Counted from the first letter of the stretch, positions 6,875-24,184 are shown. The stretch: 64,000 nucleotides of DNA from an uncultured bacterium (GCA_966250335.1 CBINGZ010000022.1:11218-75217), one strand, 5' to 3'. Translations and numbers: made by a program. The notes: a model not told the origin generated them from the sequence alone.

Positions 6875-9800
6875 ATGAGCAAGATGAATCGGGGAGAGAG
6901 GTACTCTCCCGCCGCCGTACTGTCGTTCGCCCTCATCGCGTCGTTCCTCTCCCTGCTTCTCCCCCCTCTTCTGAAGGCGCAGACGGCGGGGCCGGCGCAG
7001 CCGGAGTTCTCGAACTTCGAGCCGGTGTCGACATCGAACATGGTGAACCCGTTCGACGGCTCGTTCACCTACAATATTCCGGTGGTGACGATCCCGGGGC
7101 CGCAGGGGAGCGGATATGCCCTTTCCCTCTCCTATCACAGCGGCAACACCCCTGAGACGCAGTCGTCGTGGGTCGGCTACGGATGGACGCTGAACCCGGG
7201 GTCGGTGATCCGCGACCTGCGCGGGTTCCCGGACGACCACAAGGGGGCCGCGGTCAGGTACTGGAACAAGACCGGGAAGAACTGGACGGTGTCGGTGATG
7301 CCGAAGCTCACGTTCGAGCTCTTCAGCGCCGAGGAGCTTCCCGAGGGGATGTACGGGCCGGAAGAACTGAAAAGGATGGGGGACCTGTTCAGCTTCAATA
7401 ACACACTGCGATACAACAACCGGAAGGGGTTCGGATACTCCAAGTCGATTAATGTCAGCCCCAACCTGAAGGGGATGCCGGACTGGAGCAAGGGGGTGGT
7501 CAGCCTGAACCTGAGCCTGGACGATGGAGTGGGGAGCTTCAACTTCGGGATCAACCCCGCCAAGTCGTTGATCCAGCATGCGCTGGGGACCTCGTTCCCT
7601 TCCTCGACCGAAGACATTTATATCGATACCCGAAAGAATTTCAACAGCGCCAACTCGATCAAGCTCTTCGACCTGATGAGCGTCTTCTCCTTCTCGGGGT
7701 CGATGCGTGCGTCGAACCTCCCGGAGTACGAGGGGGAGTCGTACAACGTCCGTGTGAACGGGATGTTCACGACGACCCCGATGCCGGTCGGCATGAAGAT
7801 GGGGATAGAGGGGAGCTATACCTGGCAGCGCAACCGCGAGTCCAACATCGACGGCGCCTACGGCTACATGTATTCAGGTGACGCCGGAGAGGGGGGAGCA
7901 ATGGACTACTACCTGGAGCGTGAATCCCCCTACGTGAAACGGGAGAACTACCTGGCGATCCCCTTCAGCAACGCCGACAACTTCACGGTCACCGGCGAGG
8001 GGGTCGGAGGCGGATTCCGTCTCCACAGCGACAGGGCCGGGCATTTCGGCCCCGTCGGCAGGCACAGCAGCATCGAGATCCTTCAGGCAGGGCTTGAGCT
8101 TCATGCAGGGCTCAACGTGGGGGTCGGCTTCAGCCTCGGCGTCGGGCAGCATACCCTGGAGGTCAACCGCTGGGAGGATGAAAGCAACAGCGCCCATCAC
8201 TACAGGGCCAACAAGGGGGACGACAGCTACTTCTTCCGCTTCAACAACGACCCCGGGGGGGATGTGACGTTCGCCGACGACGACACGCCGGTCCGCGCCA
8301 GAGCCGTGGGGCCGTTCCTGAATCCCCCCATGTTCAAGTCGTACGATCCCAAGATCAGCGCCTTCATCAGCCCCACCCCGCTCGACGGCACGCAGCGATC
8401 GAACTATATCGCATATCATACGAATCGTGAGATGATGCAGCGGAGCGACACGCGTGTCGGCGAGGCGTGGGAGGTCAACGGTGTGTACTACAACTCCTAC
8501 AACAAGAATATCGCCTCCCGTGATTTCGTCGACAGAAGCGAACAGCCGGACGGTATCGGGGAGATCGCCGTCTTCAACGAGCACGGCAACAGGTACGTGT
8601 ACGGACTGCCGGTTTATTCCAGAAAGGAGAAGAACCTCCAGTTCGGGCTCGACGGCGCATCGGCCGATGATCGGGAGAACAATCATATCGCCTATACGGT
8701 CACGACCCCCTCGGCCTCCGAGCTCGTCGTCGGCGAGGAACGGAACATGCCGTATGCGAGCATGTTCCTGCTGACGGAGATCACGACCCCCGACTATGTC
8801 GACCTCACGAACAACGGCCCCACCCCGGACGACTTCGGCGGCTACACGAAATTCAACTACCGCCGCGCCGCCGGCAGCAACAGCAAGATCGACGGCGAGA
8901 GCGAGGGATGGGGGGAGAACGCGAACGAGTGGTACAAGTGGAGGTTCCCGTTCAGCGGGCTGATCTACAACAGGAACTCCCTCTCCGATCCGGAAGACGA
9001 CAGAGGTTCCCTCACCTCCGGAGAGAAGGAGCTCTACTACCTGGAGTCGATCGAGACGAAGACGCATATCGCACGGTTCATCACCAACAAGTGGCCCGAT
9101 AACCTGGGGGAGCGTCTGGACGCCTACGAGGCGCATCACGATGAAGCGGTGGCGATGGGGGACCGCGACGCCGAGATCGGCCCGGTCGGCGACGAGCCCC
9201 CGGTCAACAAATCCGAATATCTGACCAGGATAGAACTGCATGCGAAGAAATCGAACGGCGCCCCCGGTGAACTGCTCCAGAGGGTGAACCTGGAGTACGA
9301 TTACTCCATCTGCCCCGGCCTTCCCGGCTCGTACAAGCCGGAGGGAGCCGAGAAGAGCGGCGGCAAGCTTACGCTCCGGAAACTCTGGTTCGATCACGGC
9401 AACACCGCGAACGCCGAGATCAGCCCCTACGTCTTCCACTACAACTACAGGAAGAGTGAGGATTACGCGCAGGAGGTACGCGACGCCTACCCGGAGATCA
9501 CATCGTTCGGCGATGCGTACTATCCTTCGAGCATGACCACGGAGCAGCAGGAGAAGATCCAGAACCCGGACTACTCCCAGTTCCTCTCCGACCGCTGGGG
9601 CTATTACCAGTTCAACGGCGCCGACCGCTACAGGATCATGAACCCGTGGGTCGATCAGACCCCGGAACCGGAGTTCGATCCGGCCGCGTGGGAGCTGAAG
9701 GTCATCAGGCTTCCATCGGACGGCGAGATTCACGTTCAGTACGAGCAGGACGACTACGCGTATGTGCAGGATCAGCCGGCGATGGCGATGGTCAGTCTGC

Positions 9801-12800
9801 TCCACCCCGCATCGAACAGGCTGCGGGACGGCGCGGAGGGGACGGGCGTCAACCAGGCCAGATACGACATCAACCTGGCCGACCTGGGGATCCAGAGCGA
9901 TCCGACGAAACCCGATTATTCGGCCGACGAGATCGTGGAGCTGCAGAAGCGGATCTTCGAGCAGTTCGTCGTGAGGAAGGAGAAGATCTATTTCAAATAT
10001 CTCTATGCGCTCGTCGAGCTGTACGACGACTTCATCAACGCGGGCTTCCCGGTGAACCCCGAGGATTTCGCAACGGCCAGCGACGAGGTGAAGGAGATGA
10101 TCCTGCGGCGATGCGGCGCGGAGTATCTGAACGGATACGCCCAGGTGAGGGATGTCCTGCTCGATCCCCCTCTGAGCCCGCAGCCGACGGGGATCAAGAT
10201 CCTGCTCGGTACCGGGGAGGATGGAGATTACTCGATCCCGCACGAGCTCTGCCTCGATTTCCTCCGCAAGGAACGGGCGGGACGTGTCATCCCCGGCGCC
10301 GACTGCGATGCTCCGAACGATTATACCATCAGCGACGACGGCGAAGCCGTCAGCAGTGTCCGCCAGCTGTGGTCGTTCATGGGAACCATGTTCTCCGACC
10401 TGGAGACCAACTGCCGCACACTCGACTATCCTCACTCCTATCTCCGCATCCCGATAACGCGCCCGAAGAAGGGGGGGGGGATCAGGGTGAAACGGTTGCT
10501 GACCTACGATCCGGGGATCGAGTCCGGGGACGCGGCCCTCTACGGACAGGAGTTCTTCTATCGTACCGAGGATGGAAAAAGCAGCGGCGTGGCCGAGAAC
10601 GAACCGACGACGGGGCGCGATGAGAACTCGATCGTCAAGGAGATGAAGCCGCGTCACGACGAGGACGAGGAGGCGGAGATCGTGGCGGGTGAAGACCTTG
10701 CCGAATATGAAGGGCCGCTCGGCGCCAGCATCATGCCCGGTCCCTCGGTCGGATACTCGCGTGTGGTCGCGCACGATATCAACACGCGCAAGACCGGCAC
10801 CGGGTTCACGGTCCACGACTTCTTCACGGCGAAGGATTATCCCTTCGGGATGCGATATGTGCCGGCGACCGAGGGAACGCCGGAGCCGGCCGGGCTCGAC
10901 AAGAATCCGGTCAGCACGGAGCTTGAGGATCACGCGGACTGGATGATCCTCCCCCTTGGGTTCGCCGGCTACTCCAAGGCCAACGTCTGGCTCACACAGG
11001 GATATTCCTTCGTCGCCAACCGGATGCACGGCCAGCCGAAACGGACGGCGGCCTACGGCGGCCTCTACGATCCGGTCGACCCGGACCCCGCCTCGTGGGT
11101 CCTCAGCAGCCTGGATCAGTACGAGTATTTCGCCCCGGGGGAGCCGGTTCCGCTTATGCGGAGCGCCTCCGATATCGGCAAGAGAGAAGGGGGGATGGCC
11201 GATCCGGTCGTTCCGGGCGGGGTGATCGAGGAGTTCGAGACCGGATATCCCGGGAAGGAGATGGAGGTCCTCTTCGAGGGACGATGGATCGCCGACGACA
11301 AGACCGACATCGCGGTCCCGAGCGATATCAGTATTCCGATACCGGTCGGAATTCCTCCGATCGTCTCATCGGTCGCTCTCTTCTCCTACTCCACGAACAA
11401 CCTGCGGACCCATGTGACGACCAAGGTCGCCCGCTACCCGGCGCTGGTCAAGCGGATGATCACATATCGTGATGGGATCTACGACAGAGTCGACAACCTG
11501 GCGTTCGATCCGGAGACGGGGCGCCCGGCGGTCACCCGCACATACGACGAGTACGACCCGATGCACGAGCCGGTCAGGGCTCCGCATCTTTACGACGGAC
11601 GCTATCGCACCTACACGCTCCCCGCCATGCGTGACCACCGGGAGATGGGGCAGAAGGCGCTCGGCGAGCGCGGCACGATCCTTTCCGGGGACGATATCTC
11701 CGTCACCAGAAAATATCTCGGCACGGACCTGACCCCCTATCTCTCCTTCTCGTTCACGAAGCCGGGAACGGCGGAACTGATGGAAAAGATCGTACCGGGA
11801 GATCTCATCCGCCTCAGTCGCGACAACGGCGGCTTCGCGGGGCTCTACTACGCGGGAACGCCGCGGGGGAACATGCTTCCGCTTCTCCCCACCTATCTCG
11901 GCGGCGACATCTTTACATCGGAGAAGGTGGGGATCGAGATCCTGCGCAGCGGGCGCACGAACCAGCTCAGCGCCGCAAGCGCCGAGATCAGGACGTTCGG
12001 CAGGCCCCGTGCCGTGCAGATCGCGGACGAGAACGGTCAGTACGCATCGAACCGGGACGATATGTTCCTTGCCAGGGAAGGGGTCGTCACCGCGCTCAAC
12101 ACGGCGCTGGATCTGCTGGAAACGATGCCGGTCACCTCTACCACGGGAGTATCGTTCGCCGATGATATCGGTATCGTCGACGTGGACGGGACCTGCCGTA
12201 CACGCCCTTCGGGGACGCCGTGGATCGAGCTGAAGAAGGGCGCCGGGCTGGGGACCGGGGTGAATATCAGCATGGAGGTCGAGACGCGCACGGCGGCGGA
12301 AGCCCCTCCGCTCGTCAGCCCGAGTTATCCGGAGGATTCCCATCCGCTCGTGGTCGATCTCAACGCGATGCTGAACAGGACGTGGGGAATGGAGATCCAG
12401 AGTCTGACGGCGTCGCCGTCGGCACTGTTCGACTGCAGTTCGATATGCACCCCGTATTACGACGAGGAGATCCATGAGGGCTTCCCGCGTTATATCGAGC
12501 AGACATTCCCCTCGGCCATGAAGACTCCGATCCTGGCGGTCGCGGGGATCTCGGCGATACGCACATCGATGTACGATGTGGCGAGCGGTTCGGTGTCGGG
12601 CTCGGATCTTCTTGTTACGACAGACTCCGATATCGGAACCGGATGTATATCGGATCGGGAGGAACGGACGTCGAAGCTGAAGAATATCGCGATCGTTGTA
12701 AAGCAGCCCGGAACGCCGAACGCCCTTACGCTCACGCTGGACGGAAATATCAGGGATTACGTGAGGGATGTCACCTGGGTATACGAGAACGGGCAATACG

Positions 12801-23939: not shown

Positions 23940-24184
23940 AAACACTCGAACAGCAATTTGTAAACCTCCTTGGTGAACTCGGCCCAAGCCTCACTTTCAC
24001 TGATGTAGAGCAGATTCAGGAGTTAGTGGATGCAAATGAACTGGGCGTGGCTTTTGAGAATTTCTGTACACAGCTCTACGAGCGTGACGCGGTGTGCTCA
24101 CCGGAACAACTAGAGCGAATTTCCTTCGTTGGGACCGCGATGGGAATCAACTCTGACTTCTGGGAACCTCTCGCAACAACGTGA
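23936..24184 (+). CDS. Putative cognate immunity protein (82 aa, acidic) for the Rhs C-terminal toxin
   Basis: Its ATG overlaps the Rhs stop as ATGA (23936-23939). It lies in the same AT-richer island. The small acidic protein [15 protein letters not shown]...[19 protein letters not shown]...FWEPL has the size, position and overlap typical of polymorphic-toxin immunity genes. Confidence 0.55.

Follow-up and report, generated by a model that had tools for sequence, protein, structure and literature searches.

How Rhs toxins leave the cell that makes them and enter another is understood for those mounted on a type VI secretion system (T6SS) and for the Tc toxins, but not for the Sec-exported Rhs proteins of Bacteroidota. 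This question is raised by a cassette of four genes, here called A, S, B and I, at positions 6,875 to 24,184 of a 64-kb stretch of DNA from an uncultured bacterium (GCA_966250335.1 CBINGZ010000022.1:11218-75217; G+C ~63%), which is referred to below as the window. The original prediction, made from the sequence, described the locus as an oversized two-gene toxin shell in which A would be the TcB-like and B the TcC-like, Rhs-bearing part, followed by an immunity gene. The four open reading frames (ORFs) were reproduced by ORF listing with their coordinates and lengths (Table 1), and the gene calls in the ENA metagenome assembly record of the contig are identical. A and S overlap by 17 nucleotides (nt), S and B are separated by 66 nt, and B and I overlap by ATGA; a hydrophobic Sec-type leader can be read in the translations at the start of A, S and B. 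The toxin B is a routine one. What would surprise specialists is its conserved, cryptic TcB-like partner, A, together with the helper genes, and the A family is a candidate for the missing delivery component of Sec-exported Bacteroidota Rhs toxins.

Gene A, a constant companion of Rhs toxin genes

The neighbourhoods of 81 loci were compared by means of our own ORF calls and phmmer, and a locus was regarded as informative for B and S when at least 3 kb of downstream flank was available, and for the genes upstream of A when the upstream flank was sufficient. A B-type gene, recognised by its DUF6443 module, was found downstream of A in all 64 informative loci, and in 45 loci the downstream ORF also gave a strong match to the Rhs region. 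It is firmly supported that A is genetically inseparable from B-type toxins. In 41 of the 64 loci S has a homologue, placed either between A and B or immediately behind B; this count is limited by sensitivity because identity within the S family is only ~20%. The order A-S-B, for which comparative genomics had been proposed, is conserved elsewhere. Just upstream of A, an OmpH/Skp-like gene is present in 44 of 73 loci, and a lipoprotein of ~215 amino acids (aa), whose signal peptide precedes an invariant Cys, in 48 of 73.

The family to which A belongs is large. Of the 496 clusters (90% identity) obtained by a word-indexed search, the best 120 are 1538-2532 aa long (A itself has 2710 aa); none of these 120 carries a precomputed Pfam domain, and every name given by the source is 'hypothetical'. 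With the limit set at E 0.001, an exhaustive search with a profile of the N-terminal domain reached 5,555 representatives (50% identity), of which 2,415 remain at a limit of 1e-30; the best 150 of the 5,555 matches all belong to the close family. When one genome of each GTDB species was scanned by pattern, 474 A-family loci were confirmed; they occur in Cytophagales (Hymenobacter, Fulvivirga, Ohtaekwangia, Dawidia, Roseivirga, Sporocytophaga), Chitinophagales, Sphingobacteriales and Flavobacteriales, and also in metagenome-assembled genomes (MAGs) of Chlorobiota, Kapaibacteriota and Ignavibacteria. The nearest relatives of the A protein of the window are found in the Chlorobiota/Kapaibacteriota/Ignavibacteria group (L007, with 44% identity, followed by L023, L054, L059 and L077; L labels denote related loci). 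Two stretches, aa 1-1710 and aa 2118-2530, are common to the homologues, the part between them being variable, and the charged tail (aa 2531-2710) matches only L007, L027, L054, L059 and L077. In 19 loci A is split into a gene of 1650-1750 aa encoding the N-terminal module (A_N) and a second gene with the C-terminal module (A_C). The architecture is the standard form of a large family and not an oddity of the window. The proteins of 2710 and 2690 aa, which had been called oversized, are large in comparison with Tc toxins only; their size is normal within the A and B families, A homologues ranging from 1600 to 2500 aa, with P0020 (1990 aa) as a compact example, and B homologues from 1500 to 3300 aa.

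For each of two parts of A, one running from aa 40 to 1239 and the other from aa 1331 to 2530, the fold was modelled on an alignment of 55 homologues. The mean predicted local distance difference test (pLDDT) scores were 72.9 and 71.3 and the predicted template modelling scores (pTM) 0.72 and 0.65 for the first and second model, respectively. Long beta-hairpins dominate both. In Foldseek, aa 40-1239 placed TcdB1-TccC2, SGS1 and TcdB2-TccC3 on top (E 2-5e-4); SGS1, the second match, had the highest probability listed (0.63), and the longest structural alignments were those to TcB chains. The stretch aa 1842-2051 (residues 512-721 of the second model) has pLDDT below 50 except for short segments. 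The only clearly YD-like strings of A follow the predicted beta-sandwich of the C-terminal module (…YVYDPASLRLV…YHQYNAEGKLVRTL…). No beta-propeller, Rhs core or toxin appeared among the fold matches of the two models, and neither an Rhs core nor a toxin domain was detected in A with Pfam and NCBIfam; on these scans the assignment of A as a toxin-less protein is firmly supported. Translation and domain scans also gave no membrane anchor, lipobox or sorting domain for type IX secretion (T9SS) in A. At fold level, the models support placing A, as a cryptic member, in the YD-shell fold class, with a start of TcB/SpvB type.

A number of results weigh against the reading of A as a TcB-like partner within a delivery system. 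Pfam and NCBIfam scans of A gave no significant match. The string quoted as an SpvB motif, GSGYALSLSYHSGNTPETQSSWVGYGWTLNPGSVIRDL, is indeed present at aa 78-115, but SpvB (PF03534) itself stays below the Pfam threshold (E 0.037, 13.7 bits versus a cut-off of 22, positions 1-52 of 287); DUF6531 reached E 0.018, and the TcdB_toxin_midN/midC and RHS models gave nothing significant. The absence of SpvB, TcdB_toxin_midN/midC and RHS hits had been named in advance as the outcome on which the split-BC interpretation would fall, and this is formally the outcome obtained. Searches of PDB sequences with A (phmmer), with a profile of the family (55 sequences) and with the profile of the N-terminal domain found no match, the YD pattern was not enriched in A relative to shuffles, and comparison of A with the Rhs region of B gave nothing significant in BLASTP and a probability of at most 12% in hhalign. 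Since A has no significant sequence similarity to Rhs or TcB proteins, its homology is argued from the fold only. The models are modest in their mean pLDDT (71-73); the Foldseek alignments span 1100-1500 columns, but the TM-scores are ~0.1, and rigid superposition covers only 230-340 of each 1200 modelled residues. Gene S and the ~215-aa lipoprotein had no match in Pfam, NCBIfam or the PDB even with profiles, homologues of the OmpH-like protein and of the lipoprotein were absent from the whole window (HMM search in six frames), and no outer-membrane translocon is evident, A, S and B lacking a T9SS sorting domain.

A further likeness between A and B was observed at aa 375-395 of A (7997-8059), where a motif nearly invariant in the family, GGGFRLYNxxAGHFxPN, resembles the Rhs-core motif at aa 2378-2395 of B. 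The pairing was picked by both BLASTP and hhalign, in neither case significantly (hhalign probability 3%), and the motif of A could be a vestigial plug motif or a chance resemblance.

Gene B, its toxin and its immunity protein

The domains of B assign it firmly to the Rhs polymorphic toxins, of which it is an ordinary member. The Rhs-associated core model TIGR03696 matches aa 2333-2424 (E 1.8e-11, 44.4 bits against 32.5) and, when B was scanned in 500-aa pieces, RHS_repeat (PF05593) exceeded the Pfam cut-off within aa 1501-2000 (E 1.8e-6, 28.6 bits against 22). The YD-type pattern occurs eight times at aa 920-2111, versus about once in shuffles. A profile of the Rhs region, built from B and 15 relatives and 807 positions long, matched SGS1 in the PDB with E 1.5e-30, followed by the TcC subunits YenC2/RHS2, RhsP, Tse5, RhsA and teneurin-like proteins. 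The core of YenC2 (residues 604-689) aligns at profile positions 714-802, and the Rhs region of B extends by more than 100 profile positions past the start of the whole TcC; its length is comparable with that of complete stand-alone T6SS Rhs chains (~960-1080 aa). Within the shell, at ~aa 2175-2214, lies a thrombospondin type 3 insert. The core of B ends in DLDGLEG, and the 12-residue string quoted for it in the original prediction is found at aa 2415-2426, so that both quoted peptides are present in the translations. When the core ends of the B family were located by jackhmmer search, the ending NNPxxxxDxDGxE was found in 41 B-family ORFs of related loci. In Rhs and TcC proteins the end of the core is the position of self-cutting, and the toxin of B is very probably released by autoproteolysis.

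The part of B that precedes the shell had been described as a Cys-rich region of ~1300 aa, and it consists of two different things. A Cys-rich region does exist, at aa ~700-1500, where B is presumably disulphide-bonded and exposed, while the first 650 aa are Cys-poor and include a conserved module. In this module PF20041 (DUF6443) was matched by 18 of 25 aligned B-family members (best E 8.7e-11) and is a precomputed domain of many B homologues; B of the window scores below the threshold (E 0.0068, 17.1 bits versus a cut-off of 27.8). For the stretch before it, a PDB profile search gave only chance-level likeness to FN3 domains of cytokine receptors (E ~0.6). Pfam and NCBIfam scans of A and B found no TIGR04183, TIGR04131 or Por_Secre_tail match. 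As the Rhs region of B is as long as stand-alone shells and B has its own DUF6443 N-domain, B is, judging from its domains, probably a self-contained Rhs cocoon.

The C-terminus of B is the toxin, and the identification of the pair as a YD/RHS-core toxin with a cognate immunity gene was borne out by matches of TIGR03696, RHS_repeat, EndoU and MafI models above their cut-offs. The small ORF overlapping B is acidic, as had been stated (~19 D/E against 4 K/R, counted on the translation), belongs to the MafI family and has no signal peptide. Its assignment as a cytoplasmic immunity protein cognate to the toxin of B is firmly supported by these sequence features. After the core, the tails of the 41 B-family ORFs measure 66-344 residues (180-344 in complete ORFs), and 33 complete tails showed no mutual similarity in BLAST; mutually unrelated tails behind a shared core are the hallmark of polymorphic toxins. 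Ten tails were scanned with Pfam and nine of them gave no convincing domain; the B-family tails are a reservoir of uncharacterised toxins. The remaining one, in a B homologue (L013:25534-26226), was recognised as Peptidase_M23 (E 2e-14), which by its family acts on peptidoglycan. An RNase with a cytoplasmic immunity protein and, in a relative, a cell-wall hydrolase point to bacteria as the targets, as does the pattern of unrelated tails behind a shared core. Some MafB toxins are EndoU nucleases. The pairing of an EndoU-type RNase toxin with a MafI-family immunity protein is shared with Neisseria MafB/MafI, whereas the scaffold here is an Rhs shell and not the MafB N-terminal domain.

Extra B genes were observed near the main B in L002:25112-27053, L024:23124-26728 and L055:3937-8103. 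Some loci have a second full-length B paralogue in tandem, and others have ORFs of ~370-800 aa beside B that consist of an Rhs core plus a tail. These short ORFs look like orphan cassettes for recombinational tip switching. In the PDB comparison of aa 1470-2428 of B (20274-23150), SGS1 and SGS4 ranked above every bacterial Rhs/TcC structure; according to references cited in PMC9935623, the SGS genes are thought to be bacterial in origin and acquired by horizontal transfer.

One shell or two

The model that is favoured here, although we regard it as evenly poised between right and wrong, is that A is a TcB-like obligate partner that docks on a self-contained B cocoon. It is preferred on account of the length of the Rhs region of B, the DUF6443 module of its own, the start of its repeats after 1450 aa, the extra 1000 aa of A and the lack of any A-B fusion. 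According to this model, the Sec leader would bring B into the periplasm, where its DUF6443 N-module and ~940 aa of YD repeats and Rhs core would form a shell that encloses, and then frees, the C-terminal EndoU-type RNase. I would shield the producer and its kin, for which reason other bacteria would be the targets of the weapon. By docking on the Rhs cocoon, A would play for B the part that TcB, and to some extent TcA, has in Tc toxins; its variable and carbohydrate-binding-module (CBM)-like domains would supply target binding, and it would help toxin handover without a TcA injector. S may be an assembly or export helper, as may the Skp/OmpH-like chaperone and the lipoprotein in most relatives, and the neighbouring T9SS-sorted surface protein may give cell contact. 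The docking of A on B, receptor binding by A, the outer-membrane route and entry into the target are all deduced, and export is the weakest part of the model: export and delivery are guesses. The Skp-like chaperone and the lipoprotein suggest periplasmic holding or an outer-membrane step, and the recurrence of T9SS cargo nearby suggests a role for cell-surface contact in the system.

The same observations have to be weighed for a single shell, which is rather unlikely but is the alternative that survives best. In it, A_N (~1700 aa) and the Rhs part of B would join edge to edge in one closed shell, A being the TcB half and B the TcC half with core plug and toxin, and the extra domains would be external decorations. 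The gene order A then B, as in tcB-tcC, and the strict linkage (64 of 64 loci) agree with such a shell, as do the SpvB-N/TcB-N-type start of A, which lacks a core or toxin, and the existence of A_N as a separate gene near the size of TcB. The preference of the longest structural alignments for TcB chains and the YD-like hairpins at the end of A_C point in the same direction; moreover, SGS1 provides a single-chain shell of such a total size with CBM inserts (PMC9935623). Against it, the repeats of B start only after a signal peptide and 1450 aa including DUF6443, unlike those of TcC, and its Rhs region already has the full length of a stand-alone shell. The beta-propeller of TcB is absent from A in HMM scans and fold matches, 1000 further residues follow the shell-like module of A, gene S intervenes, and an A-B fusion was seen in none of 80 loci. 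Because B looks self-sufficient, a joint BC cocoon is possible but unproven. Of the uncharacterised, possibly TcA-independent BC-type architecture that had been proposed, the TcB-like partner is retained at fold level.

It is improbable that A is instead a teneurin-like surface or adhesion protein, with a closed and empty shell of its own, which would anchor or display B on the surface or on vesicles and be co-inherited with B for display, without part in toxin handover. A is toxin-less, has a CBM-like domain and a variable region, and T9SS-sorted adhesin-like neighbours are frequent, all of which would suit such a protein; yet this explanation by itself leaves the pairing with one Rhs subfamily in 64 of 64 loci unexplained, a display role alone does not account for the conserved S, Skp-like and lipoprotein helpers, and A is without a membrane anchor, lipobox or T9SS sorting domain. 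A classical, eukaryote-directed Tc toxin with its TcA encoded elsewhere in the genome would fit the TcB-like fold of A, and tc genes are dispersed in some organisms, but this is hardly probable at all and a TcA-dependent toxin was rejected, given the immunity gene, the RNase payload here and the M23 peptidoglycan hydrolase in one homologue, the lack of the TcA-binding propeller in A, the lack of a TcA-like gene in the 64 kb or recurring in 80 related loci, and the Sec leaders on both A and B.

The system works like a BC cocoon or a stand-alone Rhs toxin, and it stands close to TcB-TcC pairs (Photorhabdus TcdB2-TccC3, Yersinia YenB-YenC2) in some features and apart from them in others. Both systems have two genes in the same order; A resembles TcB in being toxin-less and, in the models, in its SpvB-N-type start and long beta-hairpins, and B resembles TcC in its RHS repeats, core with a self-cleavage motif and hypervariable toxic tail, the YenC2 match falling on the B core. 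In TcB an integrin-like beta-propeller (TcdB_toxin_midN/midC) serves as the gate of the cocoon and as the binding site for TcA. The locus fails as a member of the Tc family on these two tested features, the beta-propeller and TcA; the SpvB and RHS-repeat features of A appear in the predicted fold only, while B stands next to A as a gene of TcC type that carries an Rhs core and a hypervariable toxin. None of the large ORFs searched in the window encodes a TcA-type domain, as had been noted for the visible genes, and flank clustering found no TcA-like gene that recurs in the 80 related loci, whole genomes lying outside this search. The locus differs further in the lack of significant sequence similarity of A to TcB, in the size of A and B (~2x that of the Tc proteins, both with Sec leaders), in the 1450-aa N-terminal extension of B with DUF6443 and the Cys-rich region, in the immunity gene and antibacterial-type payload, and in its conserved helpers (S, Skp-like chaperone, lipoprotein). 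In comparison with stand-alone Rhs toxins (T6SS RhsA, Tse5 and Rhs1; Bacillus WapA), B has no PAAR, VgrG or T6SS context and is distinguished by an obligate giant shell-like partner gene, the DUF6443 N-module and the large Cys-rich insert. SGS1 (PDB 8FJP) and the teneurins likewise combine a large YD shell with receptor domains of CBM, lectin or propeller type, but they are single-chain eukaryotic proteins without an immunity gene; the shell of SGS1 contains hydrophobic helices, and the teneurins act in signalling and adhesion. In SGS1 the CBM and lectin domains are inserted into the shell (PMC9935623).

A survey of polymorphic toxins from 2012 describes a 'TcdB/TcaC' pathway in Bacteroidetes as an SpvB domain with a beta-propeller, a definition that A does not fit, and it lists Sec-only RHS toxins in Bacteroidetes without an A-type partner family (PMC3482391). 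In the full-text literature no description was found of the operon, the A family, DUF6443 or a TcB-like partner in Bacteroidota; many subscription papers lie outside this coverage, so that an earlier description is possible. We tentatively propose, with less than even confidence in the whole, that A, S and B, joined in most genomes by a Skp-like chaperone, a lipoprotein and a T9SS-sorted adhesin, are an unrecognised Rhs export and delivery machine independent of TcA and T6SS, in which the TcB-like A with its receptor-binding domains docks on, or completes, the cocoon and mediates entry into neighbouring bacteria. If true, this would extend the principle of the BC cocoon to interbacterial warfare without a TcA injector. 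The toxin tails of the family, uncharacterised and numbering in the hundreds, are a resource, and the system is a possible new chassis for protein delivery. Culturable carriers (Ohtaekwangia koreensis DSM 25262, Hymenobacter lucidus and H. segetis, Dawidia cretensis, Fulvivirga sp. M361) make the question of delivery testable, and complete carrier genomes exist (CP073749, OZ253953, OZ257241).

Features of the locus and its surroundings

Table 1. Genes, predicted domains and neighbouring elements, with window positions unless a locus label is given
Feature	Protein residues	Position	Strand	Remarks
Gene A	2710 aa	6875-15007	+	ORF listing
A, predicted Sec-type signal peptide	aa 1-36 (…LLPPLLKAQT)	6875-6982	+	translation; homologue alignments start just after
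A, putative SpvB-N/TcB-N-type domain	~aa 40-330	6992-7864	+	approximate limits
A_N, conserved N-module	aa 1-1710	6875-12004	+	mostly long beta-hairpins
A, variable middle	aa 1711-2117	12005-13225	+	several of the few Cys of A; aligned in few homologues only
A_C, conserved C-module	aa 2118-2530	13226-14464	+	conserved across family
A, CBM-like beta-sandwich	~aa 2260-2465	13652-14269	+	candidate glycan/receptor binder; YD-like hairpins then to aa 2530
A, charged helical tail	aa 2531-2710	14465-15004	+	presumed coiled coil; clade-specific
Gene S	269 aa (281 aa from 14955)	14991-15800, alternative start 14955	+	ORF listing
Gene B	2690 aa	15867-23939	+	ORF listing
B, conserved N-module	aa 250-650	16614-17816	+	DUF6443 region; most conserved B-family stretch besides Rhs region
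B, variable Cys-rich region	aa 700-1500	17964-20366	+	44 Cys; poorly conserved in family
B, Rhs/YD repeat shell	aa 1490-2332	20334-22862	+	RHS_repeat, YD strings aa 1535-2111, PDB profile matches
B, Rhs-associated core	aa 2333-2424	22863-23138	+	TIGR03696; autoproteolysis-type motif …GRFLSIDP…IDLDGLEG
B, polymorphic tail	aa 2427-2690	23145-23936	+	follows core; unrelated among homologues
B, predicted EndoU-type RNase toxin	aa 2607-2689	23685-23933	+	EndoU_bacteria E 2e-11, profile positions 57-127 of 129
Gene I, MafI-family immunity protein	82 aa	23936-24184	+	ORF listing; NF033691 E 4.1e-12, 45.7 bits vs cut-off 31
Upstream gene	751 aa	4549-6804	+	FG-GAP/VCBS beta-propeller, ASPIC/UnbV domain, T9SS type A C-terminal sorting domain
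Surface-type proteins, examples		L013:2451-8750, L014:4920-8717, L029:5602-8790, L031:5344-8832, L045:2983-8796
FG-GAP/ASPIC homologues		L007, L020, L023, L027, L046, L059, L067, L077, L081

The gene directly upstream of the cassette stops 70 nt before A, and its product was matched by Pfam FG-GAP_3 (1e-35) and UnbV_ASPIC (3.5e-16), as well as by TIGR04183 at aa 667-746 (27 bits against a cut-off of 23). A homologue of this FG-GAP/ASPIC gene lies upstream of A, though not always adjacent to it, in 8-9 relatives, mostly MAGs labelled Kapaibacteriota or Chlorobiota. The gate of TcB is an FG-GAP-like propeller. By analogy, it is conceivable that the product of 4549-6804 supplies A with such a propeller in trans.

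Unbiased clustering of the remaining flanking ORFs gave one more recurrent element: at least 18 loci encode, upstream and on the strand of the cassette, a large and variable surface-type protein, mostly as the direct neighbour of the OmpH-like gene. Five of these proteins were scanned, and three have a T9SS type B sorting domain (CHU_C/TIGR04131) at the C-terminus; their bodies contain SprB, leucine-rich repeat (LRR), CBM96, PKD or beta-helix domains; in Fulvivirga-like loci the protein has another conserved C-terminus (…DGDWSD…WS…).

Within the window, the cassette is flanked on both sides by regulators of LuxR/GerE type: a 296-aa GerE protein upstream (3391-4281, + strand) and a 561-aa TPR-GerE protein directly after I (24342-26027, + strand). 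The two are possible local regulators. A scan for promoters and terminators was uninformative, with counts at or below the expectation from shuffles. Other neighbours are a legume-lectin-domain protein (1519-3132, - strand), a 1125-aa protein of SBBP beta-propeller repeats with a weak T9SS tail (26194-29571, + strand), and a PKD/CHU_C-associated Ig protein (60768-63839, + strand) whose T9SS type A sorting domain scores 25.3 bits against a cut-off of 23. The organism had been described as T9SS-bearing, and the TIGR04183 matches on proteins of the window indicate that its source organism uses T9SS sorting signals.

Some MAGs that carry A-family loci (among L012, L027, L032 and L045) are labelled Alphaproteobacteria, Scalinduaceae or Saccharibacteria, whereas their cassettes and neighbours look Bacteroidota-like; these labels probably reflect errors of binning or labelling and not true spread. 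In L003 (L003:2210-6974 and L003:25233-26465) the cassette has a primase/PriCT/DUF3987 gene and an integrase of phage type as neighbours and a TIR-domain protein after it, which suggests a mobile or defence island. At least eight A-B loci were counted in the MAG nzgw115 (JAHEXY01, Bacteroidetes; L056, L064, L069, L073, L074, L075, L080 and L082), and two or three each in Dawidia cretensis, in the Cytophagales chromosome OZ253953 and in the MAGs PL23a_bin.6 and C_No_T20_B_bin.59. Such repeated copies within one genome resemble the multiplication of other polymorphic toxin loci.

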